32,000 nucleotides of DNA. Origin: Candidatus Moraniibacteriota bacterium (GTDB taxonomy: Bacteria > Patescibacteriota > Minisyncoccia > Moranbacterales > GWC2-37-73). The stretch spans positions 27,554 through 59,553 of the forward strand of contig JAAXUC010000007.1 in NCBI GenBank assembly GCA_013336225.1, read 5' to 3'. The notes under the pieces were generated by a model. That model ran no database searches and had not been told where the DNA came from. It saw only the letters and a program-made list of their open reading frames with translations. The position numbers and the translations under genes were made by a program. Of this stretch, positions 17,564 to 32,000 are shown piece by piece; position 1 is the stretch's first letter, and the number at the start of each line of letters is the position of its first letter.

Positions 17564-18145
17564 ATGAAAAAACAATCAAAAAAAATAGACGAGACAGAAA
17601 AGAAAGATATTAAGGATATTGAAGAACCTGCCCGCAATGCTTCGCATAGCGATGCAGGCGGGGAAATTGTGGAAAAGCCAGAAACCGAGATTGAGCAGCT
17701 TGCAAAAAAAGCGGCCGAAAATCTTGATGGATGGCAACGATGCCAAGCTGACTTTGAAAATTACAAAAAGCGCAGCAGCGAGTCGCAAAAAGATTTGGTG
17801 AAATATGCAACGCAGAGCATCATTTTGGAAATCTTGCCAGTGATCGACAATTTCCATGCTTCAACTGATCACATTCCAGCCGAGCAAAAAGACAATTCCT
17901 GGGTGACTGGAATCATGTACATTCAAAAACAATTGGAAAACATTGTGACAGAAAATGGAGTTGAAGAAATTGAAGTGAAAATTGGAGGAAATTTTGATCC
18001 AATCTATCACGAAGCGATTGAGGACAAGGAATGTGTTGATTGCAAAGTTGATCACAAATACAAGAATAAGATTAAGAAAATTTTGACCAAGGGATATAAG
18101 ATTGGGGACAGGGTCATTCGGGCAGCAAGAGTGGTGGTGGAATAG
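17564..18145 (+). CDS. grpE: Nucleotide exchange factor GrpE
   Basis: WQRCQADFENYKKR and the C-terminal beta domain GYKIGDRVIRAARVVV. Confidence 0.93.
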   Translation: MKKQSKKIDETEKKDIKDIEEPARNASHSDAGGEIVEKPETEIEQLAKKAAENLDGWQRCQADFENYKKRSSESQKDLVKYATQSIILEILPVIDNFHASTDHIPAEQKDNSWVTGIMYIQKQLENIVTENGVEEIEVKIGGNFDPIYHEAIEDKECVDCKVDHKYKNKIKKILTKGYKIGDRVIRAARVVVE

Positions 18146-18233: not shown

Positions 18234-18434
18234 AAAGCAGGCAGCGTTGTGCCAAGCTCTAATGTGATTATATCACAAACAAAAGACAAAATACAACATA
18301 CAAAATGCAATAAGAAATATAATGTATATTTGGTGATAATTAGATAATTAAATTAAAAAATAAATCATAATTAATAGACAATTTACAATAAACATTGGAT
18401 TTTGAATATTGTATTTTGGATATTGAAAAAGTAT

Positions 18435-20366
18435 ATGAGTAAAATTCTCGGAATCGACTTAGGAACAACAAACAGCGCGATGGCAATCGTGACTGGAGGT
18501 AAACCAGAAATCCTCGAAAACAAAGAGGGAAATCGCACCACACCTTCAATGGTGGCAATCTCAAAAACAGGAGAACGCTTGGCTGGACTATTGGCAAAAC
18601 GACAATCAGTGACCAACCCTGCCAACACTTTGTATTCAATCAAGCGTTTGATTGGGCGCGCCTATCACGACGCTGAAGTTCAACGGGATGAAAAATTGAT
18701 GCCATACAAAATTGTGCACGCTGGCGAAAACGTCAAAGTGACCATGGGTGACAAAGACTATTCTCCACAAGAAATTTCAGCCATGATTTTGGGAAAATTG
18801 AAAGCTGATGCTGAAGAAAAATTGGGAGAAAAAATCACAGATGCTGTGATCACAGTGCCTGCATATTTCGATGATGCTCAAAGAAAAGCCACCAAGGAAG
18901 CTGGAGAAATTGCAGGTTTCAATGTGCGTCGCGTGATCAATGAACCGACAGCAGCCGCTTTGGCCTATGGTTTTGACAAGAAAGCTGATGAAAAAATCGC
19001 AGTCTATGATTTGGGTGGAGGAACTTTCGACATTTCAATCTTGGAAGTTGGAGGGGACACAGTGGAAGTGAAATCAACCAATGGCGACACTCATCTTGGA
19101 GGAGACGACTTTGATCAAATCATCATTCAATGGATCATCGATGAATTCAAAAAACAAGAAGGCATCGATCTTTCCAATGATCCTTTGTCATTGCAACGCA
19201 TCAAAGAAGCTGCTGAAAAAGCCAAGATTGAACTTTCAACCGCGCAAGACACTGAAATCAATCAACCTTTCATCACTTCTGATGCATCGGGTCCAAAACA
19301 TTTGGTGATGAAAATGACTCGCGCAAAATTGGAAGAATTGGTTGGCGACCTTGTGCAAAAAACACTTGAGCCAGTGAAAAAGGCACTTGCTGATTCAAAA
19401 CTTTCAGTAGCAGATATCAATGAGATCGTGATGGTGGGAGGAATGACTCGCATGCCATTGGTTTTGCAAACAGTTGAAAAATTCTTTGGCAAAAAACCAA
19501 ACATTTCCGTGAACCCTGACGAAGTGGTGGCGCTTGGTGCAGCCATTCAAGGAGGAGTGCTTGAGGGAAGCGTGAAAGATGTTTTGCTTTTGGATGTGAC
19601 TCCACTGACTCTTGGAATCGAAACCATGGGAGGAATTTCAACTCCGCTGATTGAAAGAAACACCACGGTGCCAACGAGCAAAACTCAGACCTTCTCAACC
19701 GCTGCTGACAATCAACCAGGCGTTGAAATTCATGTGTTGCAAGGAGAACGCGAAGTTGCTTCAGGCAACAAGACCCTTGGAAAATTCTTGCTCGATGGAA
19801 TTCCACCATCACCTCGCGGAGTGCCACAAATTGAAGTGGAATTTGACATTGATGCCAACGGAATTTTAAATGTAACTGCCAAAGACAAAGCAACTGGAAA
19901 ATCACAATCAATCAAAATCGAAGCATCATCCGGTCTTTCAAAGGAAGAAATTGAAAAAATGAAAAAAGATGCTGAAATGCATGCTGATGAAGACAAGCAG
20001 AAGAAAGAATTGGTTGAAGCTCGCAACATGGCTGACACACTTGTCTATACAACTGAGAAAGCCATGCGCGATGCTGGTGAGAAGGTGACCGAAGAGGAAA
20101 CCAAGCCAGTCAAAGAAGCAATTGAGGAATTGAACAAAGTGAAAAACGGTGAGGACTTGAATGAAATTAAAGCCAAAACCGAAACACTTTCGCAAGCTGC
20201 GCAAAAGATTGGTGAAAAACTCTATGCTGCTGCCGAGGAAACAAAAAAGGCTGAAGCTGAAGCCAACGCCGGCGCCGAAGGCGCACCAGTGAAAGAGGCA
20301 GAAGTTGAAGGCGACAAGCCTGCTGACGAAGCAGGGGAGGAGAAAAAAGACGAAGACAAAAAATAA
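18435..20366 (+). CDS. dnaK: Molecular chaperone DnaK (Hsp70)
   Basis: [30 protein letters not shown] and an acidic C-terminal tail. The start is set at Met 12 of the listed ORF. Confidence 0.97.
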
Positions 20367-20423: not shown

Positions 20424-21227
20424 ATGAACAATACAGAAGAAGTTATACAAACTAGAATTTCTGCATATGGTCCAGGTTATTCAATAATTGATTTTGCATT
20501 GGATACGACAATTTTAAACTCCAATAATGATGGTGATAAAAAAATTTTCACCTTTGCATTCTTAGGGAGAAAAATAATTTGGACAAATCCAATCCAGGAT
20601 AACAAAGGTGGGCAATATGTGCAACGTATAACAATAGATTGGCTTGATCAAAAAGAATATTCGGACTATGGAGTAGTGATGAAATTTTTGAGTGCAGTTT
20701 GTTTTCTGGTTGATGGAATTGTTTTGGATGTGTTATTTGATGCGTCTGGACCATTCCCTGGTCCTAGATGTTCCAGGAAAGTTAGTTTTTCATGTTTGAA
20801 TGGATATGAAATTGATTTTCTTATTGCCAGTGTGGATTGGGAAAAAATTTCAGATAATAATTGGGCAATGTTGGCGTATTACAGACAAGGAGTAAATTCA
20901 AGAAGTTCGCATACAGCATTTCTATCTTTCTGGAATATATTAGAAGTTTATTTCAAAAGAAATCATGATGATATTAAAAAGTACATAAATGAAGAAATTG
21001 AAAAAATGCAAAGTTTTGAAGAGTGGAAGAAGAAAAATGGTTTAAATTTTTATAGGAAATTAAAAGATACAAGGCATAAATCAGCACATGTTCTTTTGAA
21101 TGATGATTCCATGAGTCAAATGCAAAATCCTGATAATCCAATTGAATATATTGAAATGAATGAAAATAAATTGATTATAAAAAGTTTAAGTGAAAAAATA
21201 ATTAATTCATGTCTTTATAAAAAATAA
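20424..21227 (+). CDS. Hypothetical protein with a C-terminal HEPN-like region (Rx4H)
   Basis: 267-codon ORF. The helical C-terminal half AYYRQGVNS..FLSFWNILEVYF ... TRHKSAH has R217-x4-H222 at 21072-21089. The functional assignment is motif-level only. Confidence 0.65.
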   Translation: MNNTEEVIQTRISAYGPGYSIIDFALDTTILNSNNDGDKKIFTFAFLGRKIIWTNPIQDNKGGQYVQRITIDWLDQKEYSDYGVVMKFLSAVCFLVDGIVLDVLFDASGPFPGPRCSRKVSFSCLNGYEIDFLIASVDWEKISDNNWAMLAYYRQGVNSRSSHTAFLSFWNILEVYFKRNHDDIKKYINEEIEKMQSFEEWKKKNGLNFYRKLKDTRHKSAHVLLNDDSMSQMQNPDNPIEYIEMNENKLIIKSLSEKIINSCLYKK

Positions 21228-21322
21228 AAGATGCTATAAAATTCATCATCATCCACATCACTCACGAAAATCTCAAAGAAGCGATGCATGAAAATTGAAG
21301 TCGAGGCAAATGGGGAATATAT

Positions 21323-21393
21323 AAATTGGATAAAACGAGAAACAGAATAAATTTTGCCAAAGAAAAAAGCCCTGCGATTTCGCGGGGCTTTTT
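21323..21393. repeat. Copy A of a ~70-nt module (conserved 45 nt plus terminator hairpin) 3' of ORF 21413..22111
   Basis: aaattggataaaacgagaaacagaataaattttgccaaagaaaaaagccctgcgatttcgcggggcttttt. Compare copy B at 22292-22364. Confidence 0.6.
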
Positions 21394-21412
21394 GTTTCAC
21401 ATTCTTTTAATG

Positions 21413-22111
21413 CTAATGGAGTGATGCATTGACATTGAATTTGTCATGAAGAAAAGTCCGTATGCCGATATCGTCCAAAGTTCTTTCTTTTGTGGTTATG
21501 TCTTTTGTCCACTTGAAAAGTATTCCATATGTCATGAATCCCTTGCTACTCTTGAAAAACCTTATAAACTGGGCATCATGTTTTTCAAAGCAGTTCTTGA
21601 TTTTTGAAATAGTCTCTTCCTCTTTCATTCCTGCGAGAAAATTGACTATCTCTTTTTCACGGCGAAATTCCAATTCAATTTTTAAAAAGTCATAAGATTC
21701 GGCTGCAAAAATTGGTTCGCGCACATTGAATGGTGGTGGATATGCTTTAATAACTTCCATTGCAATCAATTTGCGCATTTGGCCGGAAAGCATTGCCGCG
21801 GTTTTTGGATGCATTTTCTTATTATTCATGGCTCCCTGAAAAAACATTTCCAGGTCTACTTGAAAACCGCCTGTTGTCTTGCTTTTACTTATTGACCATG
21901 ATAATACATTGCCGCCGCTATAGAAATTGAGTTGCTTAATCCACGTCGGCATCATTTTGCGAAGCCATGCTCGATGTCCATTGAGAAAGCATTTTGTTTC
22001 GCAGGAAATCTTTACAGTTGTTCCGAGGTCTGGCTCATAAATATTCTCCAGGCCTAGTAGCAATTTTTTCAACGCAATTGGTTTTCTGACTCCAGGTTTT
22101 GTTCCTTGCAT
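21413..22111 (-). CDS. Hypothetical protein; possible Pol-beta-fold nucleotidyltransferase (weak motif)
   Basis: AGGAGG lies 5 nt upstream of the ATG. FYSGG-x18-DLEM (21848-21919) resembles hG[GS]...[DE]h[DE]h, but the spacing is longer than in minimal NTases. Confidence 0.7.
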   Translation of the reverse strand: MQGTKPGVRKPIALKKLLLGLENIYEPDLGTTVKISCETKCFLNGHRAWLRKMMPTWIKQLNFYSGGNVLSWSISKSKTTGGFQVDLEMFFQGAMNNKKMHPKTAAMLSGQMRKLIAMEVIKAYPPPFNVREPIFAAESYDFLKIELEFRREKEIVNFLAGMKEEETISKIKNCFEKHDAQFIRFFKSSKGFMTYGILFKWTKDITTKERTLDDIGIRTFLHDKFNVNASLH

Positions 22112-22291
22112 GACATCCTCCTGTCACAATCTTTTTATTTGTGCCCGTCCAGGGCCGTTCATTTTTTGCAGATCCTGTCTGCTTGTACACTGCCGCCTCC
22201 TTGTCGGCCATTTTGTTAAAAAACTCATTTCACCCAATATTTATTGGTTTTTTAATATATCAACAAATCTATGCAAAAGCAAGGGATATGC

Positions 22292-22364
22292 AAATTGGAT
22301 AAAACAAGAAACAAGATAAATTTTGCTAAATAAAAAAGCCTCGCGTCACTGCGCGGGGCTCTTT
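22292..22364. repeat. Copy B of the ~70-nt module, 3' of ORF 22381..22938
   Basis: aaattggataaaacaagaaacaagataaattttgctaaataaaaaagcctcgcgtcactgcgcggggctcttt. Confidence 0.6.
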
Positions 22365-22380
22365 GTGCTTAGTTGTGTTT

Positions 22381-22938
22381 TTACTGCATGATGTAATCGA
22401 CTCCTGTGCCGAAATTTGCTCGGCTTCGTTGGTCACTGTAGCGGACTGGATTCCATGGCGAGAGATAATTCTCCTCGAAATATTTCATGAATAAATCAAA
22501 TTGCTTTGAAGTTTCAGGAAAAATCCCAATAGTTAATTCGTGACTGTTCATGACAGCGCGTACGACTTCAAATTGAAAATCCTGCTCCTCTATGAATCCG
22601 CGTTTTGTGAAATGAAGCAGAAAAATCTGACGAAAGAGAAAGGCCACGCCCGCAATCAATTCAGCAGGGTTAAAACTTTTTTCATGTAAAATTTCATGTG
22701 CCTCTTTGTCGCGTCCTTCTTTATTGGCAAGAATCATTTCAATCTGTTGTCTTGCTTCAACCTCACTGCCCATTGGGTTGATTATGAAGAAGTTCAGTGC
22801 TTGTGTAATGAATAGTGAAAACGTTTTCAAGTCATCGCTCGTTTCGCTTTGTTTTAGCAAATACATACTCTTGAACAAAACATTATTGAATATGCTTGGG
22901 GTCAAATAACGAGTTGCCAAAATTTGTAATCTTCTCAT
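22381..22938 (-). CDS. All-helical hypothetical protein with Rx4-5H and HExxH strings
   Basis: AAGGAG lies 7 nt upstream of ATG 22938; the listed TTG start at 22956 lies inside that SD. Motifs are RDKEAH (22696-22713), overlapping HEILH, and RAVMNSH. Confidence 0.7.
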   Translation of the reverse strand: MRRLQILATRYLTPSIFNNVLFKSMYLLKQSETSDDLKTFSLFITQALNFFIINPMGSEVEARQQIEMILANKEGRDKEAHEILHEKSFNPAELIAGVAFLFRQIFLLHFTKRGFIEEQDFQFEVVRAVMNSHELTIGIFPETSKQFDLFMKYFEENYLSPWNPVRYSDQRSRANFGTGVDYIMQ

Positions 22939-23114
22939 GAGAATCTCCTTTTTCAATTGGGAATGTGCTGCTTTTGGATTTTACCACTAACTTTGTATTA
23001 TACTCCAAAATAAGCCAAAAGTCAAGGTAGTAGGGAATTGAGGCTTTTCTCAGGCTCAAAGTGATGGTGCCAAAAAAATGCGGTCGTCTGAATTTGGCGC
23101 CAGGTTGGAACACG

Positions 23115-23151
23115 AAAAAAGACCTTGCGATTTTGACCGCAAGGTCTTTTA
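23115..23151 (-). terminator. Intrinsic terminator of the 23884..23189 operon
   Basis: Stem agaccttgcg / cgcaaggtct. The A6 run on the plus strand gives a T-run on the minus strand. Confidence 0.8.
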
Positions 23152-23188
23152 TTTTGGATTGATAATGCAACTTTGTAGTTTTATGAGA

Positions 23189-23521
23189 TCATGGTTGATC
23201 TTTTGCTTCAGTATTGCTTTTCAACAACACTTTCAGGAATAGGTCTGGAAATTTTTTTCGAATCATTCTTCCAATGAAAAAGAAAATGATCACTGTCAGC
23301 AGATTGAGAACCGAAAATGACTTGTCGTCAATTTGGCCTATCAGGATGAAGCTGAAATTGACCGAGATGATCGTTGTCAACATTGCCATTGATCCAAGAA
23401 TCGCATGTTGTTTTTTGGGTAGTTGCGCCAATCTGATGGCGTCATAATATGCACTTGAAAGGGGAAAAACCATGAGTAAGAAAATGCTGACAAGAAATTT
23501 GATGTTAAATAGTTCTGGCAT
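23189..23521 (-). CDS. Small integral membrane protein (about 3 TM segments)
   Basis: AAGGAG overlaps the upstream gene's TAA stop, indicating translational coupling. Hydrophobic segments include FLVSIFLLMVFPL, ILGSMAMLTTIISVNFSFILI and LNLLTVIIFFFI. Confidence 0.75.
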   Translation of the reverse strand: MPELFNIKFLVSIFLLMVFPLSSAYYDAIRLAQLPKKQHAILGSMAMLTTIISVNFSFILIGQIDDKSFSVLNLLTVIIFFFIGRMIRKKFPDLFLKVLLKSNTEAKDQP

Positions 23522-23533
23522 GGTTATTCTCCT

Positions 23534-23884
23534 TTAGCATTCTGCACATTCGGAAATGAAAAGCACATTTATTCCAAATTGCAGTTGGATTGTTGGATGC
23601 GTGTCAGTGTAGGTCAAACATCCATCCAGGGCTGATTCATTCGTTCTCATCATTTCTTCAAAAATTTCCATTTCTGCGCAGATGTCCTCAGCTCCTTCTT
23701 CAAGCTCCTCAATGTTTTCTCCGAGCGATTGTTGATAGGCGTTTCGGATGTCCTCTGCATCAAAGATGATTTTTTTGACAAATTCCCGGGTTGATTCGGG
23801 CAGGTTCGGAAGTTTTTCAATGGCTGAGGCGTAGGCAATGAAATAATCAACATCATCGATAAAGACCTCCATCTCCGTGATCAA
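23534..23884 (-). CDS. Acidic hypothetical protein
   Basis: The ORF has a TTG start at 23884 with GAGGA upstream; ATG 23872 is an alternative. It is co-oriented with and 12 nt from the membrane-protein gene. Confidence 0.6.
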   Translation of the reverse strand: MITEMEVFIDDVDYFIAYASAIEKLPNLPESTREFVKKIIFDAEDIRNAYQQSLGENIEELEEGAEDICAEMEIFEEMMRTNESALDGCLTYTDTHPTIQLQFGINVLFISECAEC

Positions 23885-24042
23885 GGAGGAATCCTCGAAT
23901 TCAGGATCTATAAAAAGGTTTCTGTGGGTGCTGATTTCATGGGAGCCTCCTTTCTTTGATTTGTTAAATAGCTATCTTTGTTATGGGGCATAATTGAAAA
24001 AAAGTCCATAGCGCGCGATGAAATTAAAAGCAAAAAATGTTT

Positions 24043-24081
24043 AAAAAAATAGAGCTCAGTGAAATTTCACTGAGCTCTTTA
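24043..24081 (-). terminator. Intrinsic terminator of ORF 24092..24448
   Basis: Near-perfect palindrome agagctcagtgaaa/tttcactgagctct. The A7 run on the plus strand gives a T-run on the minus strand. Confidence 0.8.
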
Positions 24082-24091
24082 AATATTTGCT

Positions 24092-24448
24092 TCATTTTCT
24101 AGCAGACTTTTCGATGTTTTCATATACGGTTTCCAACATAATCATTATTTCTTTAATGAGTGCTTTTTTTGTTGGAATAAGTCTTAACTTGTTGTTAAAG
24201 TCTTTTGCAGCCATGAAAAGAAGAAGTTCAATAGAGTTTCCAATCATTTCATTGCGAATGTCAATTCGCACCGCGACGGTTATTTTCAGAAGGTCTTCAA
24301 GAGTAATAATATCCCTCTCGATGAGCTCATGGTGCGCATCGCTGCTGTTTTTTTCACGCTCAAGTTTGAGTTCTTCTTGTATTTCAGTGCAATAGTCATG
24401 GATTTTTGCAAGCATGTCGCAATTAAATGGCCTGTCTAGCTTTCTCAT
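24092..24448 (-). CDS. Helical hypothetical protein
   Basis: GAGGTG SD upstream and a terminator downstream. No motif recognised. Confidence 0.7.
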   Translation of the reverse strand: MRKLDRPFNCDMLAKIHDYCTEIQEELKLEREKNSSDAHHELIERDIITLEDLLKITVAVRIDIRNEMIGNSIELLLFMAAKDFNNKLRLIPTKKALIKEIMIMLETVYENIEKSARK

Positions 24449-24532
24449 GGTTCACCTCGTCCTCGTTTATTTTTTTAAAGTGCTTGTTTGTGTGTGGTAT
24501 TTTTATCCCTGATGCTATATTTAAGCGTAAAA

Positions 24533-24554
24533 TGACAAAGTTGTCAAGCATGCT
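24533..24554. promoter_or_regulatory. Candidate operator palindromes in a divergent spacer
   Basis: TGACAA-ag-TTGTCA (24533-24546) is immediately followed by the perfect palindrome AGCATGCT (24547-24554). Confidence 0.3.
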
Positions 24555-24641
24555 GTTTGTGCACCCTTTACAATAAACAGATTTAATGTTTAACTCATAT
24601 ATTGCTGTTCTTTAAACTATATCTAAAGGGGAGGTGAGATC

Positions 24642-25031
24642 ATGGAAGGATTCTTTGCTAGTGAGGAAAATCGGCAATTGTATGTTCAATACTATATGGA
24701 TCTCCATCAAGCCATTGAAGACTTTAGTGTTGCGCTTAAAATTGAGCTCAATAACCATTTTGCCAATCCCGGTAAGATTATCTCCATAGGAAATTCCCAT
24801 CTTGGTTTTCATGGATTCTTGCGTTGCGCATACAGGCTTTTGTATGAGAGGCCAAATTATTTTAATGTGAGGGCATTTAATAATGAAAAAGAAGATGTTT
24901 ATCGCGTTGGCATCTTGCTGGAATTGGAAAATTTCTTGGTAAATCTTCCAGGCGCGACAATTCCGCTGCGACCGCCAGCCATTAGTGCTTGGCTCTCGCT
25001 TAAACAACGTGATAGATATGTCCAATTTTAA
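24642..25031 (+). CDS. Hypothetical protein
   Basis: GGGGAGGTGA SD upstream and a terminator downstream. No motif recognised. Confidence 0.75.
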   Translation: MEGFFASEENRQLYVQYYMDLHQAIEDFSVALKIELNNHFANPGKIISIGNSHLGFHGFLRCAYRLLYERPNYFNVRAFNNEKEDVYRVGILLELENFLVNLPGATIPLRPPAISAWLSLKQRDRYVQF

Positions 25032-25066
25032 AAAGGCGAAATTTCATTGAAATATCGCCTTTTTTC
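25032..25066 (+). terminator. Intrinsic terminator
   Basis: Stem aggcga(aatttc) / (gaaata)tcgcct, followed by tttttt. Confidence 0.7.
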
Positions 25067-25081
25067 TATGTCCAATAAATC

Positions 25082-25090
25082 TGCTATAAT
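25082..25090 (+). promoter_or_regulatory. Extended -10 promoter
   Basis: TGcTATAAT lies 28 nt upstream of ATG 25118. Confidence 0.45.
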
Positions 25091-25117
25091 GAATGTATTA
25101 ATAATCAAAAATAAAAT

Positions 25118-26176
25118 ATGAATCGTAAAAAAATTGAAATGCTGCTTGGCTCGTTGACGATGGTTGTGGCTTTTTTTTCATGGCTATCCGTGAAAAGTGC
25201 CATTGTTGTGCCTGACTCCAGCACTTGGATGGTTCCAATGGTTCTTTTTTCATTATATGCTGTCTTAATTTGTTCAGATGTCATTCTTTTTCGCAGCGTG
25301 CTGGCCTTAGAGCTTGTTTTGATTGGTTCACTTTTGCTGAGCGCTGTTTTTGCTTTTCACTGGATTCAATTTGTTGCAATTTTGCTTGGCGCATATTTCA
25401 TATTTTTGTCATCAAGAAAAATCAGGGAAGACATGGATTTGAATGTTAAAATCAGCATTTGGAAATCGTTGCAAGTTGGCAAGACATATTTGCTCATTGC
25501 TCTGAGCTTAGTGATTGCAGCACAATACTTTTTTGTGATGAACAGTTTTGATGGAGAGAAAAAAGTTCCACATTTTGATGTGAGTTTTATCACGAAGAAA
25601 GTTGCCATTCCTTTTGTCTCAGCAATCAATCCACAATTTGCAGTGCTCAAGGATGAAACATTGACTGTTGACCAATTCATTTTGCAATCTCAACAAAATG
25701 CTCTTGAGAATGTTGGCATGTCAGAAGAAAATGAGAAAATTTTGGATGAAAATATTCCAACCAACCTCACGCCTTTGCAAAAAGAAGATCTCAAGAAGCA
25801 GGCTATTGAAAATTTCACTGGTGCGCAAACTCAACTTTTGCAAAAAAATCAAGAACTTATTTTGAAAAATGGCAGGAAACAATTCAGTGATCAGGTGGGT
25901 GTTACATTGACCGGAAGTGAAAAAATTTCAGATGTGTTCACTGGGCTTGTGAGCAGCAAGATTGATGATTATTTCAATCCAAAGGTTTCTGGTGGAGAAA
26001 AAAGTTCTGTTTTCCCAATGATTTTGGCAGCAGTGTTGCTTTTGACTATTTATCCGTTGGGTTCAATTTTGAGCATTGCTTGGTTTCTGATTGTGAAATT
26101 GGTGATAATTGCTTTACTGAAATTTAAAGTCATGAGTGTTGGCGTGATGACTGTTTCAAAGGAAACTCTTGAATAA
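25118..26176 (+). CDS. Multi-pass membrane protein, unknown function
   Basis: About 4 N-terminal and 2 C-terminal hydrophobic helices flank a polar central region. No SD. Confidence 0.8.
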   Translation: MNRKKIEMLLGSLTMVVAFFSWLSVKSAIVVPDSSTWMVPMVLFSLYAVLICSDVILFRSVLALELVLIGSLLLSAVFAFHWIQFVAILLGAYFIFLSSRKIREDMDLNVKISIWKSLQVGKTYLLIALSLVIAAQYFFVMNSFDGEKKVPHFDVSFITKKVAIPFVSAINPQFAVLKDETLTVDQFILQSQQNALENVGMSEENEKILDENIPTNLTPLQKEDLKKQAIENFTGAQTQLLQKNQELILKNGRKQFSDQVGVTLTGSEKISDVFTGLVSSKIDDYFNPKVSGGEKSSVFPMILAAVLLLTIYPLGSILSIAWFLIVKLVIIALLKFKVMSVGVMTVSKETLE

Positions 26177-26226: not shown

Positions 26227-26342
26227 TTTTTGCTTCGCCTATTTCCTCTTGAGAGCACGCTTCGCAGCCGAAATCTATGGCTGCTCACTCGGACCTCGCT
26301 CTCGCTCGCTACGGCTTCAAGAGAAAACAGGCGAAGCAAAAA
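26227..26342. other. 116-nt GC-rich long hairpin (candidate structured RNA or palindromic element)
   Basis: The 26-nt arms tttttgcttcgcctatttcctcttga / tcaagagaaaacaggcgaagcaaaaa have 2 mismatches. They enclose a 64-nt GC-rich core with an inner stem gcagcc/ggctgc. Confidence 0.4.
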
Positions 26343-26388
26343 TGCGAGTTAATTTTTGAAATCATATGTTGTGTATATTTCCTGAAGT

Positions 26389-26425
26389 TATAATCCAATT
26401 AGCACTCCCGGCAAGGGATTGCTAA
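26389..26425 (+). promoter_or_regulatory. TATAAT -10 box plus second CIRCE operator upstream of dnaJ
   Basis: TATAAT spans 26389-26394. CIRCE TTAGCACTC-ccggcaagg-GATTGCTAA spans 26399-26425, with one mismatch in the right arm. No convincing -35 was found. Confidence 0.8.
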
Positions 26426-26489
26426 TTTTTTTATTTGGTTGTATTATATATTGGTAACAAAATAGGTAAAATGGTAAATATTTGTATAT

Positions 26490-27584
26490 ATGGCTGACTA
26501 TTATAAAATTTTAGGTGTTGATAAGAACTCATCCGATGATGAGATTAAAAAGGCTTATCGAAAGCTTGCTCACAAGCATCATCCAGACAAGCAAGGTGGA
26601 GATGCGGAAAAATTCAAGGAAATCAATGCGGCCTATCAAGTGCTTTCGGACAAATCCAAGCGTCAGCAATATGACCAATTCGGATCTGGCTTTGAGCAGC
26701 GAGGTGGTGGTGGCGGATTTGGTGGTTTTGGAGGCCAGGGTTTCAGTGGCTTTTCTCAAGGCGGGCAAGATTTTGATTTTGGCGACGGGTTTGAAGACAT
26801 TTTTTCAAACATTTTTGGTGGCGGTCAAAGTGGTGGAAGAAAACAGGACATGCGAAAAGCTGGCAATGACATTCAGGTGGATGTGGAAATGAATTTTGAG
26901 GAGATGGTGAATGGTGCTCATCGTGAAATTGAATTGTATCAGCGAGTGCTTTGTGATGTTTGCGCTGGATCTGGCGGCGAGCCAGGAGCAAAAGAGCAGA
27001 CCTGCGAAACTTGCAAAGGCAGCGGAAAGATTCACAAGACTGTGAGCAGCTTCTTTGGTTCATTTTCACAAGCCTATGTTTGTCCATCTTGCCAAGGGAT
27101 GGGAAAAACTTTTTCACAAAAATGTCACAAATGTCGTGGGGAGGGCAGAGTTAAGCAAGCTCGCAAAATTCCAGTTGACCTTCCGGCAGGAATTTCTGAT
27201 GGACAAACTGTTTCAATGCAAGGACAAGGTGAAGCGGGAGAGCGCGGCGCACAATCTGGAGATTTATACATCACAGTGCATATCACAAAGCATCCTAAAT
27301 TTACACGTGAAGGAAATAATTTGCTTTCAACTGAAACGATTTCATTTTCGCAGGCTGCACTTGGAGATAAAATAAATGTTGCAACAATTGATGAAGTTGT
27401 GAAAATGAAAATTCCTGCCGGCACGCAATCTGGAGAAATGTTTCGCATCAAGGGGCAGGGTGTTCCAAGCCTTGGTCGCACCAATCGCGGCGACCATTTG
27501 GTGAAAATCATTGTTCAGGTGCCAAAAAACCTCTCTCGCGACCAAAGAAAAATTTTGGAAGAGTTGCAAAAAGAGGGACTTTAA
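26490..27584 (+). CDS. dnaJ: Molecular chaperone DnaJ (type I)
   Basis: J domain with HPD, a G/F-rich region, and four CxxCxGxG motifs ([32 protein letters not shown]). Confidence 0.96.
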
Positions 27585-27603
27585 AGCAAGAAACATACTT
27601 TTC

Positions 27604-27633
27604 AAAAAATGCCTCAAATGAGGCATTTTTTTG
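27604..27633 (+). terminator. Intrinsic terminator after dnaJ
   Basis: Stem atgcctca / tgaggcat, followed by a T7 run. Confidence 0.8.
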
Positions 27634-27651
27634 TTTTTGTAACAAAAATTA

Positions 27652-27680
27652 TTGACAAAAACCAATAGGGATGCTACATT
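27652..27680 (+). promoter_or_regulatory. Promoter of the giant repeat-protein gene
   Basis: TTGACA (27652-27657), 17-nt spacer ending in TGc, TACATT (27675-27680). Confidence 0.55.
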
Positions 27681-27747
27681 TTGCTGTCATCTCTTTTGGT
27701 TGATATTTTGTTTAAATTGTTTATAATTTTTTTATATATTTATCCTT

Positions 27748-30700
27748 ATGACCTGGTTTAAAAGCAAGCTGACAAGTATGCAGAAATCTTTAAGTGGCGC
27801 ATCAACAATCGTTAAAAAGAAATTTGATCTTAAGAAATCGACCGCAGTTTTGCTTGTGGTTTTTTTATTGTCCGGAATCGCTTTGGTGCAAGTCAATGCG
27901 CAGACAAAGAAAGTCATCGATGCGTATATTCTGGATATCACACACAGGATTAGAAATAATGATATTTCAAAAAAAGCAAAAATAAGTTACAAAAAACTCG
28001 GACTTAGAAATTCTATCAGATCAAAAGATATTAAAAATGGCGAAGTTAAAACATCTGACATTAAAGATGGTGCAGTGACACTTGCCAAGCTTGCTGGAAA
28101 CGTCATTGGACAAATCGCTGTTCAAAATGGAACAATCTCCTCAGGCTCAATTCAAGATGGCGCTATCGTGACGATTAAGCTGGCCGATGGATCAGTGACG
28201 ACTGTGAAGATTGAAGATGGAGCTGTTGATACCAATAAACTTGCTAATGACAGTGTGACCAGTGCTAAGATTGCAAATGGCACAATCAATAGCATTGACC
28301 TTAATGATGGAATCATCACTGATGTGAAATTGGCTGACGGAGCTGTGACGACTGCCAAAATTTTGGATGGTTCAATCACGGCTGGCAAATTGGAAGCAGG
28401 ACTTTTGGCTTCCATCACTTTGGCTGATGGCAGCGTGACCACAATTAAGCTTGCTGACGGCGCAGTTACTGATGTGAAATTGGCTGACGGATCAGTGACA
28501 ACTGCCAAGCTTTTGGATAATGCAGTTGTGACGAGCAAATTGGCTGATGGTAGTGTGACTGATGTGAAAATTGTCGATGGTGCAATCACCAATGGAAAAT
28601 TGGCTGATGGATCAGTGACCACTTTGAAACTTGCTGATGACTCTGTAACCAGCGCCAAGATTGTGGATGGATCAGTGCAAACACTTGATTTGATTGATGG
28701 CATCATTACTAATGTTAAACTTGCTGACAACAGTGTGACGACCGCCAAAATTTTGGACGGTTCAATTACGGCTGGAAAAATTGCCAATGGAGCAATTCTT
28801 GCAGTTAGTTTGGCTGATGGTAGTGTGACTAATGCAAAAATCGCTGATGGGGCAATTGATAGTTTGAAACTGGCTGATGATTCTGTGACCAGCGCAAAAA
28901 TCCTTGACTCTGCTGTGACTGCCAGCAAATTGGCTGACGACAGTGTAACCGCAGTTAAGATTGTTGATGGAGCTGTGACCAATGGAAAACTTGCTGATGG
29001 ATCAGTGACCACAATTAAAATAGGGGACGACGCAATTACAACTGCAAAAATTGTTGACGGCACAATCGTGGGACAAGATCTTGCTGATTCAATAATCAGC
29101 TCTATTAAGATTGCTGATGGTGCTGTGACAGCAATTAAGATTGCTGATGATGCAATCATCACGGCAAAGATTGCAGACGGAGCTGTGACTAATGGAAAAC
29201 TTGCAAATGACGCTGTGGCCACAATCAATCTTATTGATGGCAGTGTTGTGACAACTAAAATTGCTGACGGAGCTATCGTTAATGCAAAAATTGGTGATCA
29301 GGAAATTAGTGGCGCAAAATTGGCTGCAAATATAACTATTGATACCACTGGTTCAATCACGGCTGCATCATTTACTGACGGCGTTGCCACTATTGCTGGT
29401 GGAGATATTACAGCTAATAATATTTCTATCCTAGGTTCAATCACCTCAGCTGTTGGTGGATTTGTGGGAGACCTTGTTGGAAATGTAATCGGAAATGTGA
29501 CGGGAAATGTCACCGGAAATCTTTTTGGAAATGCTGACAGTGCAACCAATGCTGATAATGCGACAACTGTCACTGATGGTGTATATACAACTGGCTCATA
29601 TGCTGATCCTGCTTGGATCACAAGTTTGAATGCTGTTAAGTTGTTTGGAGTCTTCACTGGAAATGTTGTCGGCAATGTGCTGGGAAATTTGACTGGAAAC
29701 GTGACTGGAGACGTCACTGGAAATCTCTTTGGAAATGCTGATAGTGTTACCAATGGAATCTATTCAACTGGTTCATATAGTGACCCAGCTTGGCTTAGCG
29801 GAATTGGAGCTTCCAAGATTATCGGAACGATTGTTGGAACGCAAGTTGCTGATGGCACACTTACTGGCGGAAAATTGGCTTCTGACGGCAGCATGGTTAA
29901 GTCAATCGTGGCTGGGCCAAATGTGACGGCAACTAATAATAATGATGGAACTTGGACAATTGATATTTCCGGGGGCGTGGGACTTGGAACTATCACTGGC
30001 GTGACCGCAGGCGATGGTCTTGTTGGTGGCGGAAATATTGGAGATGTCACTTTGGATATAGGCGCTGGAACAGGAATGGTTGTGGGTGTGAATACGATTG
30101 GAATTGCAGATGCTGGAGTCAACACTCAGCAAATTGCTGATGGCAGTGTGGTTGCAAGCAAATTGGCTGATGGCAGCGTGATCACTTCAAAAATTGCTGA
30201 TGGCGCAGTTACTGGTGGAAAAATTGCTGCTGGAACTATTTTGGACACCATGTTGGCTGACGGATCAGTGACCACTTCAAAATTGGTTGATAATGCTGTG
30301 ACGGGAATTAAGCTTGCTGATGACAGCGTGGGGACTTCAAAACTTCAAAACTTGGCAGTGACAACCGTCAAGCTGGCTGATGGAAGTGTGACTGCGGCAA
30401 AAATTTTGGATGCCACCATTACGGCTGGAAAAATTGTTGATGGGACTATCACCACAATCAAACTTGCTGATGACAGTGTGACCACTGCTAAAATTGTGGA
30501 TGGAACAATCATGGCTACTGATTTGGCTGATGGAATCATCACCACAATTAAACTTGCTGATGACAGCGTGACCACTGCTAAAATTGTGGATGGAGCTGTT
30601 ACTGCTGGAAAACTTGCTGATGGGAGTGTTGTTAGTTTGAGTCTGGCAGATGGATCAGTGACAACTGCTAAAGTTGCTGACGGTGCAATTACTGATATTA

Positions 30701-32000
30701 AGCTTGCTGATGACAGCGTGACCACTGCTAAAATTTTGGACAGCGCTGTGACTACCGGAAAACTTGCTGACGGAAGTGTTGTCACAAGCAAAATCGCAGA
30801 TGCAACCATCACTTCAGGAAAAATTGCAGACAGTGCAATCACCCCTGCTCATCTTGCTGATAGTGCTGTTACCAATGCCAAGCTTGCAGCTGACGCTGTG
30901 ACAACTGACAAAATTGCTGACGGCACAATCGTGGGAGCTGATTTAGCCTCAGATATTGATATCACAACTACTGGTGTGGTTGTTGCTACTGGTTTCGTGG
31001 GTGATATGATTGGAAACATTTCTGGCAACGCTGAAACTGTGACTGACGGAATTTATGGTTTGGTTGATAATACTTTCTCTGGGGTTAATACTTTTGCTCA
31101 AACGATTGTGGGAAACATTTCTGGTAATGCTGGAACTGTGACTGACGGAGTTTATGCAACAACTGATCAAACAATTTCAGGTATCAAGACATTTACCAAC
31201 GGAATCATTTCTGATGTAACTGGAAACTTGACTGGCGATGTTGCTGGAAACGTTACTGGAGATGTGACGGGAAATGTTGTTGGTGATTTAACTGGAAATG
31301 TAACTGGAGACGTAACTGGAGACGTAATCGGAAACGTGACTGGCGATGTGACTGGTGATCTAACCGGAAATGTTGTTGGCGACGTCACTGGAAATTTGAC
31401 TGGTGATGTTATTGGAAATGTAACAGGCGATGTGGTTGGAAACGTTGTTGGAAATTTAACTGGCGACGTCACTGGAAATCTTTTTGGAAATGCAACCACA
31501 GCTACAACTGCAGACACCGTGCTTGATGGAGCAATCACCAACGTCAAGCTTGCAGCTGACGCTGTGACAACTGACAAAATTGCTGACGGCACAATCGTGG
31601 GAGCTGATTTAGCCTCAGATATTGATATCACAACTACTGGTGTGGTTGTTGCTACTGGTTTCGTGGGTGATATGATTGGAAACATTTCTGGCAACGCTGA
31701 AACTGTGACTGACGGAATTTATGGTTTGGTTGATAATACTTTCTCTGGGGTTAATACTTTTGCTCAAACAATTGTTGGAAACATTTCTGGTAATGCGGAA
31801 ACTGTGACCAATGGTGTGTATGCAATCGGAGATCAGACAATTGCTGGAGTTAAAACATTTACATCTGACATTATTGGAAACATCACAGGCAATGCAGCAA
31901 CTGTGACTGATGGAGTTTATGCGACAACTGATCAAACAATTTCAGGTATCAAGACATTTACCAATGGTATCGTTTCAAACGTTACTGGAAATGTAACAGG
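27748..32000 (+). CDS. Giant secreted/surface repeat protein, 3'-partial (at least 1417 codons)
   Basis: My codon-by-codon translation of frame 1 from ATG 27748 found no stop up to nt 32000. The N-terminus is signal-peptide-like (KKKFDLKKSTAVLLVVFLLSGIALVQVNA-Q). It is missing from the ORF track because there is no stop inside the window. Confidence 0.85.
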   Translation, partial: MTWFKSKLTSMQKSLSGASTIVKKKFDLKKSTAVLLVVFLLSGIALVQVNAQTKKVIDAYILDITHRIRNNDISKKAKISYKKLGLRNSIRSKDIKNGEVKTSDIKDGAVTLAKLAGNVIGQIAVQNGTISSGSIQDGAIVTIKLADGSVTTVKIEDGAVDTNKLANDSVTSAKIANGTINSIDLNDGIITDVKLADGAVTTAKILDGSITAGKLEAGLLASITLADGSVTTIKLADGAVTDVKLADGSVTTAKLLDNAVVTSKLADGSVTDVKIVDGAITNGKLADGSVTTLKLADDSVTSAKIVDGSVQTLDLIDGIITNVKLADNSVTTAKILDGSITAGKIANGAILAVSLADGSVTNAKIADGAIDSLKLADDSVTSAKILDSAVTASKLADDSVTAVKIVDGAVTNGKLADGSVTTIKIGDDAITTAKIVDGTIVGQDLADSIISSIKIADGAVTAIKIADDAIITAKIADGAVTNGKLANDAVATINLIDGSVVTTKIADGAIVNAKIGDQEISGAKLAANITIDTTGSITAASFTDGVATIAGGDITANNISILGSITSAVGGFVGDLVGNVIGNVTGNVTGNLFGNADSATNADNATTVTDGVYTTGSYADPAWITSLNAVKLFGVFTGNVVGNVLGNLTGNVTGDVTGNLFGNADSVTNGIYSTGSYSDPAWLSGIGASKIIGTIVGTQVADGTLTGGKLASDGSMVKSIVAGPNVTATNNNDGTWTIDISGGVGLGTITGVTAGDGLVGGGNIGDVTLDIGAGTGMVVGVNTIGIADAGVNTQQIADGSVVASKLADGSVITSKIADGAVTGGKIAAGTILDTMLADGSVTTSKLVDNAVTGIKLADDSVGTSKLQNLAVTTVKLADGSVTAAKILDATITAGKIVDGTITTIKLADDSVTTAKIVDGTIMATDLADGIITTIKLADDSVTTAKIVDGAVTAGKLADGSVVSLSLADGSVTTAKVADGAITDIKLADDSVTTAKILDSAVTTGKLADGSVVTSKIADATITSGKIADSAITPAHLADSAVTNAKLAADAVTTDKIADGTIVGADLASDIDITTTGVVVATGFVGDMIGNISGNAETVTDGIYGLVDNTFSGVNTFAQTIVGNISGNAGTVTDGVYATTDQTISGIKTFTNGIISDVTGNLTGDVAGNVTGDVTGNVVGDLTGNVTGDVTGDVIGNVTGDVTGDLTGNVVGDVTGNLTGDVIGNVTGDVVGNVVGNLTGDVTGNLFGNATTATTADTVLDGAITNVKLAADAVTTDKIADGTIVGADLASDIDITTTGVVVATGFVGDMIGNISGNAETVTDGIYGLVDNTFSGVNTFAQTIVGNISGNAETVTNGVYAIGDQTIAGVKTFTSDIIGNITGNAATVTDGVYATTDQTISGIKTFTNGIVSNVTGNVT
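28051..29340 (+). repeat. Coding array A: 43 uninterrupted 30-nt (decapeptide) units
   Basis: Consensus x-x-K-[LI]-A-D-G-[SA]-[VI]-T, for example TIKLADGAVT DVKLADGSVT TAKLLDNAVV. No indel across 1290 nt. Confidence 0.9.
29470..29733 (+). repeat. Two short tetrapeptide arrays, each followed by a TDGxY..GSYxDPAW module
   Basis: 29470-29529 has 5 units (DLVG NVIG NVTG NVTG NLFG). 29662-29733 has 6 units ending in NLFG. Confidence 0.8.
30124..30963 (+). repeat. Coding array B: 28 uninterrupted decapeptide units
   Basis: Same consensus and register as array A, running from TQQIADGSVV to GADLASDIDI. Confidence 0.9.
30880..31103 (+). repeat. Intragenic duplication, copy 1
   Basis: Base-for-base identical by eye to 31546-31769 (224 nt, offset 666 nt). 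Confidence 0.85.
31213..31488 (+). repeat. Coding array: 23 uninterrupted 12-nt (tetrapeptide) units [DN]-[VL]-[TVIAF]-G
   Basis: DVTG NLTG DVAG NVTG ... DVTG NLFG, ending in the same NLFG-N-A cap as the smaller arrays. Confidence 0.9.
31546..31769 (+). repeat. Intragenic duplication, copy 2
   Basis: Identical to 30880-31103. Similarity continues with scattered mismatches to about 31795. Confidence 0.85.

Follow-up and report, generated by a model that had tools for sequence, protein, structure and literature searches.

A gene on contig JAAXUC010000007.1 of a Candidatus Moraniibacteriota bacterium (assembly GCA_013336225.1) encodes long arrays of a ten-residue unit, and the question raised by this locus is what such arrays build and what the protein carrying them does for the cell. 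The window analyzed here is the whole stretch of 32,000 nucleotides (nt) between positions 27,554 and 59,553 of the contig, and all coordinates given below refer to this stretch. The arrays are all found inside one open reading frame (ORF) on the + strand, 27748..32000, which stays open without a stop codon to the end of the window; its product is here called the fibre protein. Since the frame is unclosed at base 32000, the protein is at least 1417 amino acids long and its C-terminus lies beyond the window. The reading favored here, and considered probable, is that the arrays make up the shaft in a phage-tail-fibre-like fibre that is secreted, probably as a trimer, and displayed on the surface of the Candidatus Moraniibacteriota cell.

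Register and Regularity of the Decapeptide Arrays

Array 1 (28051..29340, + strand) consists of 43 units with the pattern T-a-K-[LI]-A-D-G-[SA]-[VI]-T, array 2 (30094..30963, +) of 28 units starting at 30124 together with one degenerate leading unit, and what has been called 'array 3' (31510..31629, +) of four units. An earlier note on this DNA, which was made from the letters alone, had listed arrays of 43, 28, and 4 units that are in frame, make up exact multiples of 30 nt and contain no indel, and these coordinates and counts were found to be correct. The list missed the degenerate unit at 30094-30123 ahead of array 2, however, and although the four units of the third array are present, they are not an independent array. 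A 246-nt duplication accounts for most of them: about 2.6 of the units fall within its second copy, and the rest lie just upstream of that copy.

The per-position entropy is lowest at unit positions 3 (K), 4 (L/I), 6 (D), and 9 (V/I). In array 1 aliphatic residues occupy 98.8% of the every-fifth positions, compared to 30% of the positions overall, and the strict five-residue aliphatic periodicity pointed out in the earlier note is thus real. No in-register run is longer than the 43 units of this array, while shuffling the protein 300 times gave runs of three units at most; the regularity is far beyond chance. A public contig, L001, which was independently assembled, is identical to positions 26308-30582 of the window without a mismatch, and array 1 is therefore no assembly artefact. 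L001 is the only other contig with the neighboring dnaJ gene. It ends inside array 2, at 30582, which is at the onset of the 90- and 150-nt higher-order repeats of this array, and it is at these repeats that short-read assemblies break.

The units of array 1 display an identity of 0.37 to their immediate neighbors (lag 1), 0.40-0.46 at lags 2-10, and 0.38-0.40 at lags 11-12. In 239 arrays from homologues the lag-1 identity is 0.426, compared to 0.43-0.47 at the other lags, adjacent units being the least alike. This could be due to avoidance of identical neighbors or to duplication of several units at a time.

The Repeat Belongs to a Known and Widespread Class

The earlier note took the decapeptide for a new repeat. 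This did not hold, as a Pfam family, several PHROG families and 70,104 matching protein clusters already share the pattern. Pfam scans of the whole protein and of 12 sub-fragments gave no significant family, and PF25296, 'Decapeptide repeat region', did not match the whole protein or any of nine sub-fragments at E<=10. When it comes to the homologues, PF25296 gives matches of 20-41 bits (E down to 1e-10), which is below its gathering cut-off of 45 bits. The stretches matched in eight of them (P0004, P0010, P0012, P0035, P0058, P0080, P0021, and P0042) are runs of xxK[LI]ADGxVTxx, and the consensus of the window arrays equals the sequences beneath these matches. Since the matches cover this very repeat, the repeat is already a named family. 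PF25296 and the window arrays have the same consensus and the same 10-residue period, but the family's own model scores the window arrays nowhere, and the window units are more varied; the model appears to be tuned to near-perfect TTAKLADGSVT runs.

The strongest matches were obtained with tail-fibre families of PHROGs. The best ones are phrog_28766 (E 6.7e-133) and phrog_892 (E 3.1e-132), whose best stretches lie within array 2 and array 1, respectively, and the tail-fibre matches as a whole, including phrog_21412, range from E~1e-132 to 1e-84. A tblastn search with array 1 found 152 phage records, among them T7-like cyanophages and minor tail proteins of Gordonia and Mycobacterium phages. 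In a protein search 8,000 candidates were scored, and over 4,109 of them were homologues at E<=1e-10. Out of 1.84 billion representative proteins (clusters at 50% identity), 70,104 matched a profile of 20 in-register units at E<=1e-3; with the limit set at E<=1e-30 there were 7,188.

The 234 best proteins contain 740 in-register arrays of at least eight units, with a median of 12 and a maximum of 87 units when a single degenerate unit is allowed per run. The general consensus over the homologue arrays is [TAS]-a-K-[IL]-A-[DAN]-[GND]-[AST]-[VI]-T. Four of the homologues (P0009, P0048, P0062, and P0115) contain blocks of exactly 12 units, two residues apart, repeated four to six times; this architecture is not seen in the window protein. 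The window protein thus adds an unannotated member to a repeat class that is already known and occurs very widely. The profile search called for in the earlier note did find a known family, and a search of the literature gave, within the library covered, no paper on the decapeptide repeat of tail fibers, on PF25296 or on DUF5907.

One further family match was rejected. NCBIfam TIGR04294, 'H-X9-DG-CTERM', scores 31 bits with a cut-off of 19, at about residues 214-224 of the protein (numbering from 27778). No single stretch passes, and the score was judged to be a sum over the xxDG units. As this case illustrates, a curated cut-off can be exceeded by a repeat array.

Unit Number, Codon Usage, and Duplication

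The closest relatives of the fibre protein, with 54-59% identity, are encoded by metagenome-assembled genomes of Candidatus Moraniibacteriota (Patescibacteria/Parcubacteria). These orthologues are 915-1066 amino acids long. The first array contains 43 units in the window protein, 15 in P0001, 16 in P0002, 16 in the orthologue at locus L004, and 27 in P0005. Units 1-5 and 11-15 of P0001 correspond to units 1-5 and 39-43 of the window protein, so about 28 whole units were added in the middle of array 1 relative to P0001. In array 2 both proteins have 28 units. For several distinctive ones a unique counterpart exists in the other protein, and the order is the same, whereas the remaining units match ambiguously. 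A comparison of unit number between relatives had been proposed in the earlier note, and it shows that the number differs in whole units only.

Compared as DNA, the units share an identity of only about 50%, and Tandem Repeats Finder for this reason reports only fragments of the arrays. It was proposed early that the conservation is at the level of the amino acids, and indeed the residue pattern is held while the synonymous sites are saturated. Different codons are used at 50.6% of the positions where two units have the same residue. A random draw from the codon usage of the array itself would give differing codons with a chance of 0.39-0.73 per residue, and this usage resembles that of the other genes in the window. 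The idea that codons are shuffled as a guard against recombinational collapse was therefore abandoned, as the level of shuffling equals that of a random draw from the local usage. The codon differences are synonymous saturation and need no special device.

Saturated synonymous sites together with a protein pattern that is held imply that the units are old and under purifying selection. Duplication is still going on, as seen from a 246-nt segment present in two copies and from the 90- and 150-nt higher-order repeats contained in array 2. The first of the two copies (30886..31131, +) spans the last part of array 2 together with the cap module following it, while the second (31552..31797, +) contains much of 'array 3'. 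The copies have a nucleotide identity of 98.8% and encode 82 identical residues.

A Proposed Surface Fibre with the Arrays as Its Shaft

AlphaFold2 was given 20 units (13-32 of array 1) and an alignment of 39 in-register array pieces. The resulting model has a mean predicted local distance difference test (pLDDT) score of 82.8 and a predicted template modelling score of 0.47, and it is strictly periodic, elongated, and non-globular. Each unit reads 'HHH-------', that is a one-turn helix on T-x-K with the remainder extended and with no strand or bridge. Foldseek found no chains in PDB for this model at E<=10. In BFVD 22 viral proteins were found at E<=1e-3, and the named ones include phage tail fibres, T7-fibre-like proteins, and DUF1983 proteins; some of the matches are unnamed, and one is an iridovirus protein. 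The BFVD matches have low template modelling scores, which is what chains of such length and flexibility would be expected to give.

From the conservation and the AlphaFold2 model it may be proposed that each decapeptide is one structural module. The L/I at position 4 and the V/I at position 9 would then form a hydrophobic spine, D6-G7 a tight turn, and T10-x-x-K3 a one-turn helix. Such a module would be self-contained, which would explain that units are gained and lost only whole, and the array would act as a spacer of adjustable length. The spacer would keep at a distance from the cell the other modules of tail-fibre type, as well as a distal domain encoded beyond the window.

By analogy with the phage relatives, a homotrimer is the most likely state of the fibre. 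Among the 120 best homologues the domains Prophage_tail, Peptidase_S74, Phage_T7_tail, and Mtd_N co-occur with the repeat in 14, nine, four, and three proteins, respectively. Peptidase_S74 is an intramolecular chaperone, Prophage_tail a tail-tip protein and Phage_T7_tail an N-terminal domain, and these three, like Mtd_N, belong to trimeric phage fibre and tail-tip proteins. The likely role of the fibre would be attachment to a host cell or to a surface, which is the natural guess for an episymbiotic lineage.

Several points weigh against a trimeric, adhesive fibre. The trimer is deduced from relatives, and a trimerization or anchoring domain was recognized neither in the window protein nor in P0001's C-terminal domain, the latter being without a match in PDB or PHROGs. 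The C-terminus of the fibre protein itself is outside the window. Only two of the five AlphaFold2 models are confident while the other three have a pLDDT below 70, and AlphaFold2 without an alignment, run on array 2, gave a pLDDT of 41.

The fold of the decapeptide array is still unsolved, as the earlier note had it, in that no solved structure contains more than about four units. A more far-reaching proposal, which we regard as tentative, is that the array represents a fibrous fold without a solved counterpart, meaning neither the pentapeptide-repeat helix nor a known triple β-helix or β-spiral. This fold would be common to tens of thousands of fibre proteins of phages and cells, and in the Candidate Phyla Radiation (CPR) it would be used in cell-encoded fibres for attachment to a host, with the unit count determining how far they reach.

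Alternative Structures for the Arrays

The consensus of the pentapeptide-repeat (Rfr) proteins is A(D/N)LXX, with D or N before the central hydrophobic residue. The spacing of the aliphatic residues in the arrays might be taken to mean that pairs of decapeptides are coils of a single-chain, right-handed quadrilateral β-helix with four five-residue faces per 20 residues. The aliphatic residues at every fifth position are each preceded, two positions earlier, by a small A or G, and the array profile aligns in register with the designed pentapeptide solenoids 4yc5, 4yei, and 4yfo (E about 2e-8) and with Np275/276 (2j8k, E 2e-3). The central Leu of these proteins is thereby paired with unit positions 4 and 9, and their small i-2 residue with positions 2 and 7. 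The E-values are, however, inflated for periodic low-complexity profiles. Pentapeptide_4 (PF13599) hits homologous arrays and once, in P0042, passes its cut-off of 38 bits with 43.4 bits, but on the window protein it reaches only 13.1-13.5 bits.

The canonical consensus is not found in the arrays, in agreement with the earlier note. The residues before the central ones are K (79%) and S/A/T, not D/N, and about one unit in four has D or N at position 7, which is the i-2 position. AlphaFold2 with the alignment gave no strands and hence no quadrilateral β-helix, and since no PDB chain was matched by Foldseek, no pentapeptide protein was matched either. The model made from a single sequence does contain strand pairs about 20 residues apart, but its confidence is low and Foldseek matched it to leucine-rich-repeat-like structures only, at E>=0.39. 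In the lag identities over the 239 homologue arrays no clear signal was found for a superperiod of two or three units, the differences being at most about 0.04. The pentapeptide likeness suggested earlier thus stands for the five-residue periodicity and the profile similarity, but is not borne out by the structure predictions, and a quadrilateral β-helix is considered unlikely. The authors of a study on the similar decapeptide region of DotG reached the same negative conclusion (PMC13244404).

Other sequence matches in PDB, to designer pentatricopeptide repeat proteins, ribosomal L5, and low-complexity chains such as ARID and a Plasmodium pyridoxal kinase, were rejected as artefacts of periodicity or composition. 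The short tail fibre of phage SU10 (7z4b, E 0.02) was found to be uninformative, as its matched region was modelled by AlphaFold (PMC9509320).

It is less probable still that the arrays are a flexible and largely unstructured spacer, for instance an envelope-spanning linker, whose periodicity only reflects the history of duplication. The low scores of the single-sequence model and of three of the alignment-based models would fit such a spacer, as would the decapeptide region of DotG, which is likewise unresolved. Against it, the residues at positions 3, 4, 6, and 9 are conserved despite synonymous saturation, there are no indels in 71 units, in-register runs in homologues extend to 87 units, and the two best AlphaFold2 models are both confident and strictly periodic. 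The conserved positions and the exact register imply strong selection on the register, which would be needless in an unstructured linker.

A Putatively Secreted Protein Encoded by a Cellular Gene

The ORF has an ATG at 27748 and a second one at 27778. The start was placed at 27748 because the N-terminus, MTWFKSK..., resembles that of the orthologue P0001, MSWFNFN.... The N-terminal region (27748..27900, +) reads as a Sec signal peptide. In the translation a K-rich n-region is followed by the hydrophobic stretch AVLLVVFLLSGIALV and then by VNA|Q, and the region, which might alternatively be a signal anchor, is kept in the orthologues P0001, P0002, and P0005. These three also share the N-terminal lead-in that comes next (27901..28050, +; ..DISKKAKISYKKLGLRNSIRSKDIKNGEVK) and grades into array 1, and for which no PHROG match was found.

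In the window the fibre gene is preceded by grpE (17564-18145), dnaK (18402-20366), and, directly upstream, dnaJ (26490-27584). The gene directly upstream is dnaJ in two of the four orthologous loci as well, and none of the neighboring ORFs has a match in PHROGs. A gene encoding a PsbP_2-like protein of 226-238 amino acids is found directly after the fibre gene in all four orthologous loci (L002 6633-7349, L003 5498-6214, L004 5714-6394, and L005 9358-10065), and it is a possible conserved partner of the fibre gene, its place here being beyond the end of the window. Further downstream the genes are housekeeping genes in the three loci that were characterized (L002, L003, and L004). The dnaJ neighbor, the housekeeping surroundings, and the lack of phage genes indicate a cellular gene and not a prophage gene.

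A signal peptide is not expected on a virion fibre. That the gene is a true tail-fibre gene of a prophage or of a prophage remnant is therefore highly improbable in spite of the very strong PHROG tail-fibre matches and the many phage homologues, given the putative signal peptide, the position directly after dnaJ here and in two orthologous loci, the PsbP_2-like gene and housekeeping genes downstream in orthologous loci, and the absence of any neighboring ORF with a PHROG match.

Other Modules and Neighboring Reading Frames

The region between arrays 1 and 2 (29341..30093, +) contains a cap-like ..IDTTGSITAASFTDG.. segment, runs of G-N-V-x tetrapeptides, two GSYxDPAW motifs, and a GPNVTATNNNDGTWTI module; it is without a match in Pfam or PHROGs. 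A tetrapeptide array, G-[ND]-[VL]-[TVI], with a period of 12 nt is found at 31213..31496 (+), and the same pattern also occurs at 29473-29533 and 29690-29723. This array displays a weak similarity to the C-terminal triple β-helix of T4 gp5 (E 0.014-0.03) and to phrog_430. The similarity to gp5 is only a hint, as other four-periodic low-complexity chains score above it. Toward the end of the window (31771..31961, +) follow 99-nt repeat modules of the form GN..GNA.TVT.GVY...DQTI.G.KTFT, a motif resembling tail fibres and BppL_N. The Pfam family BppL_N (PF18338) itself scores 26.6 bits with a cut-off of 25.8 on 31630-31998.

Long ORFs are also found antisense to the arrays, at 28152-29228 (-), 29298-29753 (-), and 30345-30842 (-), and they encode up to 358 amino acids. 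They are regarded not as genes but as a side effect of a codon pattern that is repeated. The gap of about 6 kilobases between dnaK and dnaJ (20424-26176) holds seven ORFs. One of them is MauJ-like (20424-21227), while the other six gave no match in Pfam or PHROGs.

Significance of the Repeat

The decapeptide is one of the elements from which phage and phage-like fibres are most commonly built, and a structure of 10-20 units would account for the shaft in a very large group of fibres that bind receptors. The rise per unit could further serve as a ruler, making it possible to calculate the length of a fibre from its sequence. The point of real value is the three-dimensional structure and the oligomeric state of the array. 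Patescibacteria are an episymbiotic lineage and live attached to other cells. A chromosomally encoded, tail-fibre-like protein that is predicted to be secreted and has 15 to 43 units in its first array is a reasonable candidate for an attachment organelle in these bacteria.

Comparison with Known Systems

Phage tail-fibre and minor tail proteins share the decapeptide arrays with the window protein, and the structural matches in BFVD are tail fibres. The window protein further contains other modules of tail-fibre type, namely DQTIxGxKTF and runs of G-N-V-T. Unlike the phage fibre genes, the gene studied here is chromosomal in a CPR bacterium, lies beside dnaJ, encodes a putative signal peptide, and has no phage neighbors. 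The only solved entry containing the motif is the head decoration protein of phage LME-1 (9eg4_H), where about four units are found at residues 93-133 (E 1.7e-8). The base of this protein is trimeric, which speaks for the trimer proposed here, and the protein stands out from the capsid, but it has four units only and its distal part is not modelled.

The pentapeptide-repeat proteins (Rfr; PF00805/PF13599) have in common with the arrays a hydrophobic residue at every fifth position and a small i-2 residue. They differ in that the true period of the window repeat is 10 and not five, and in that neither AlphaFold2 nor Foldseek gave an Rfr fold.

Among the PDB sequences, the one that the array profile matches best is DotG/IcmE of Legionella, in its decapeptide region (E 2e-9). 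This is also a 10-residue repeat of variable copy number, with the pattern hydrophobic-x-D-x-x-hydrophobic-[ST]. It has been reported that the DotG decapeptide gives Pentapeptide_4 matches while AlphaFold gives no pentapeptide β-helix, and that its fold is unknown (PMC13244404). The DotG motif is [KR]-x-A-G-[FY]-[STND]-x-x-x-[LI], while the window repeat has V/I in place of the aromatic residue and D-G in place of A-G. Furthermore, DotG is a part of a secretion machine (Dot/Icm, type IV) and not a fibre with tail-fibre modules, and no DotG or type IV secretion domain was reported for the window protein or for the neighbors scanned with Pfam. The similarity between the two repeats may be convergent.

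The 'mosaic adhesive trimer' (MAT) fibres of Bdellovibrio are cell-encoded, surface-displayed, tail-fibre-like trimers that recognize other cells and have a conserved N-terminal domain and exchangeable tips (PMC10769870). The parts of them that have been solved are trimeric β-helices and tips, and some MATs end in an S74 chaperone (PMC10769870), while none was found in the window protein. The organism and its lifestyle also differ. The likeness is functional, by the published description (PMC10769870). Judged by this analogy, the MAT family of Bdellovibrio would be the closest known functional parallel to the fibre proposed here.

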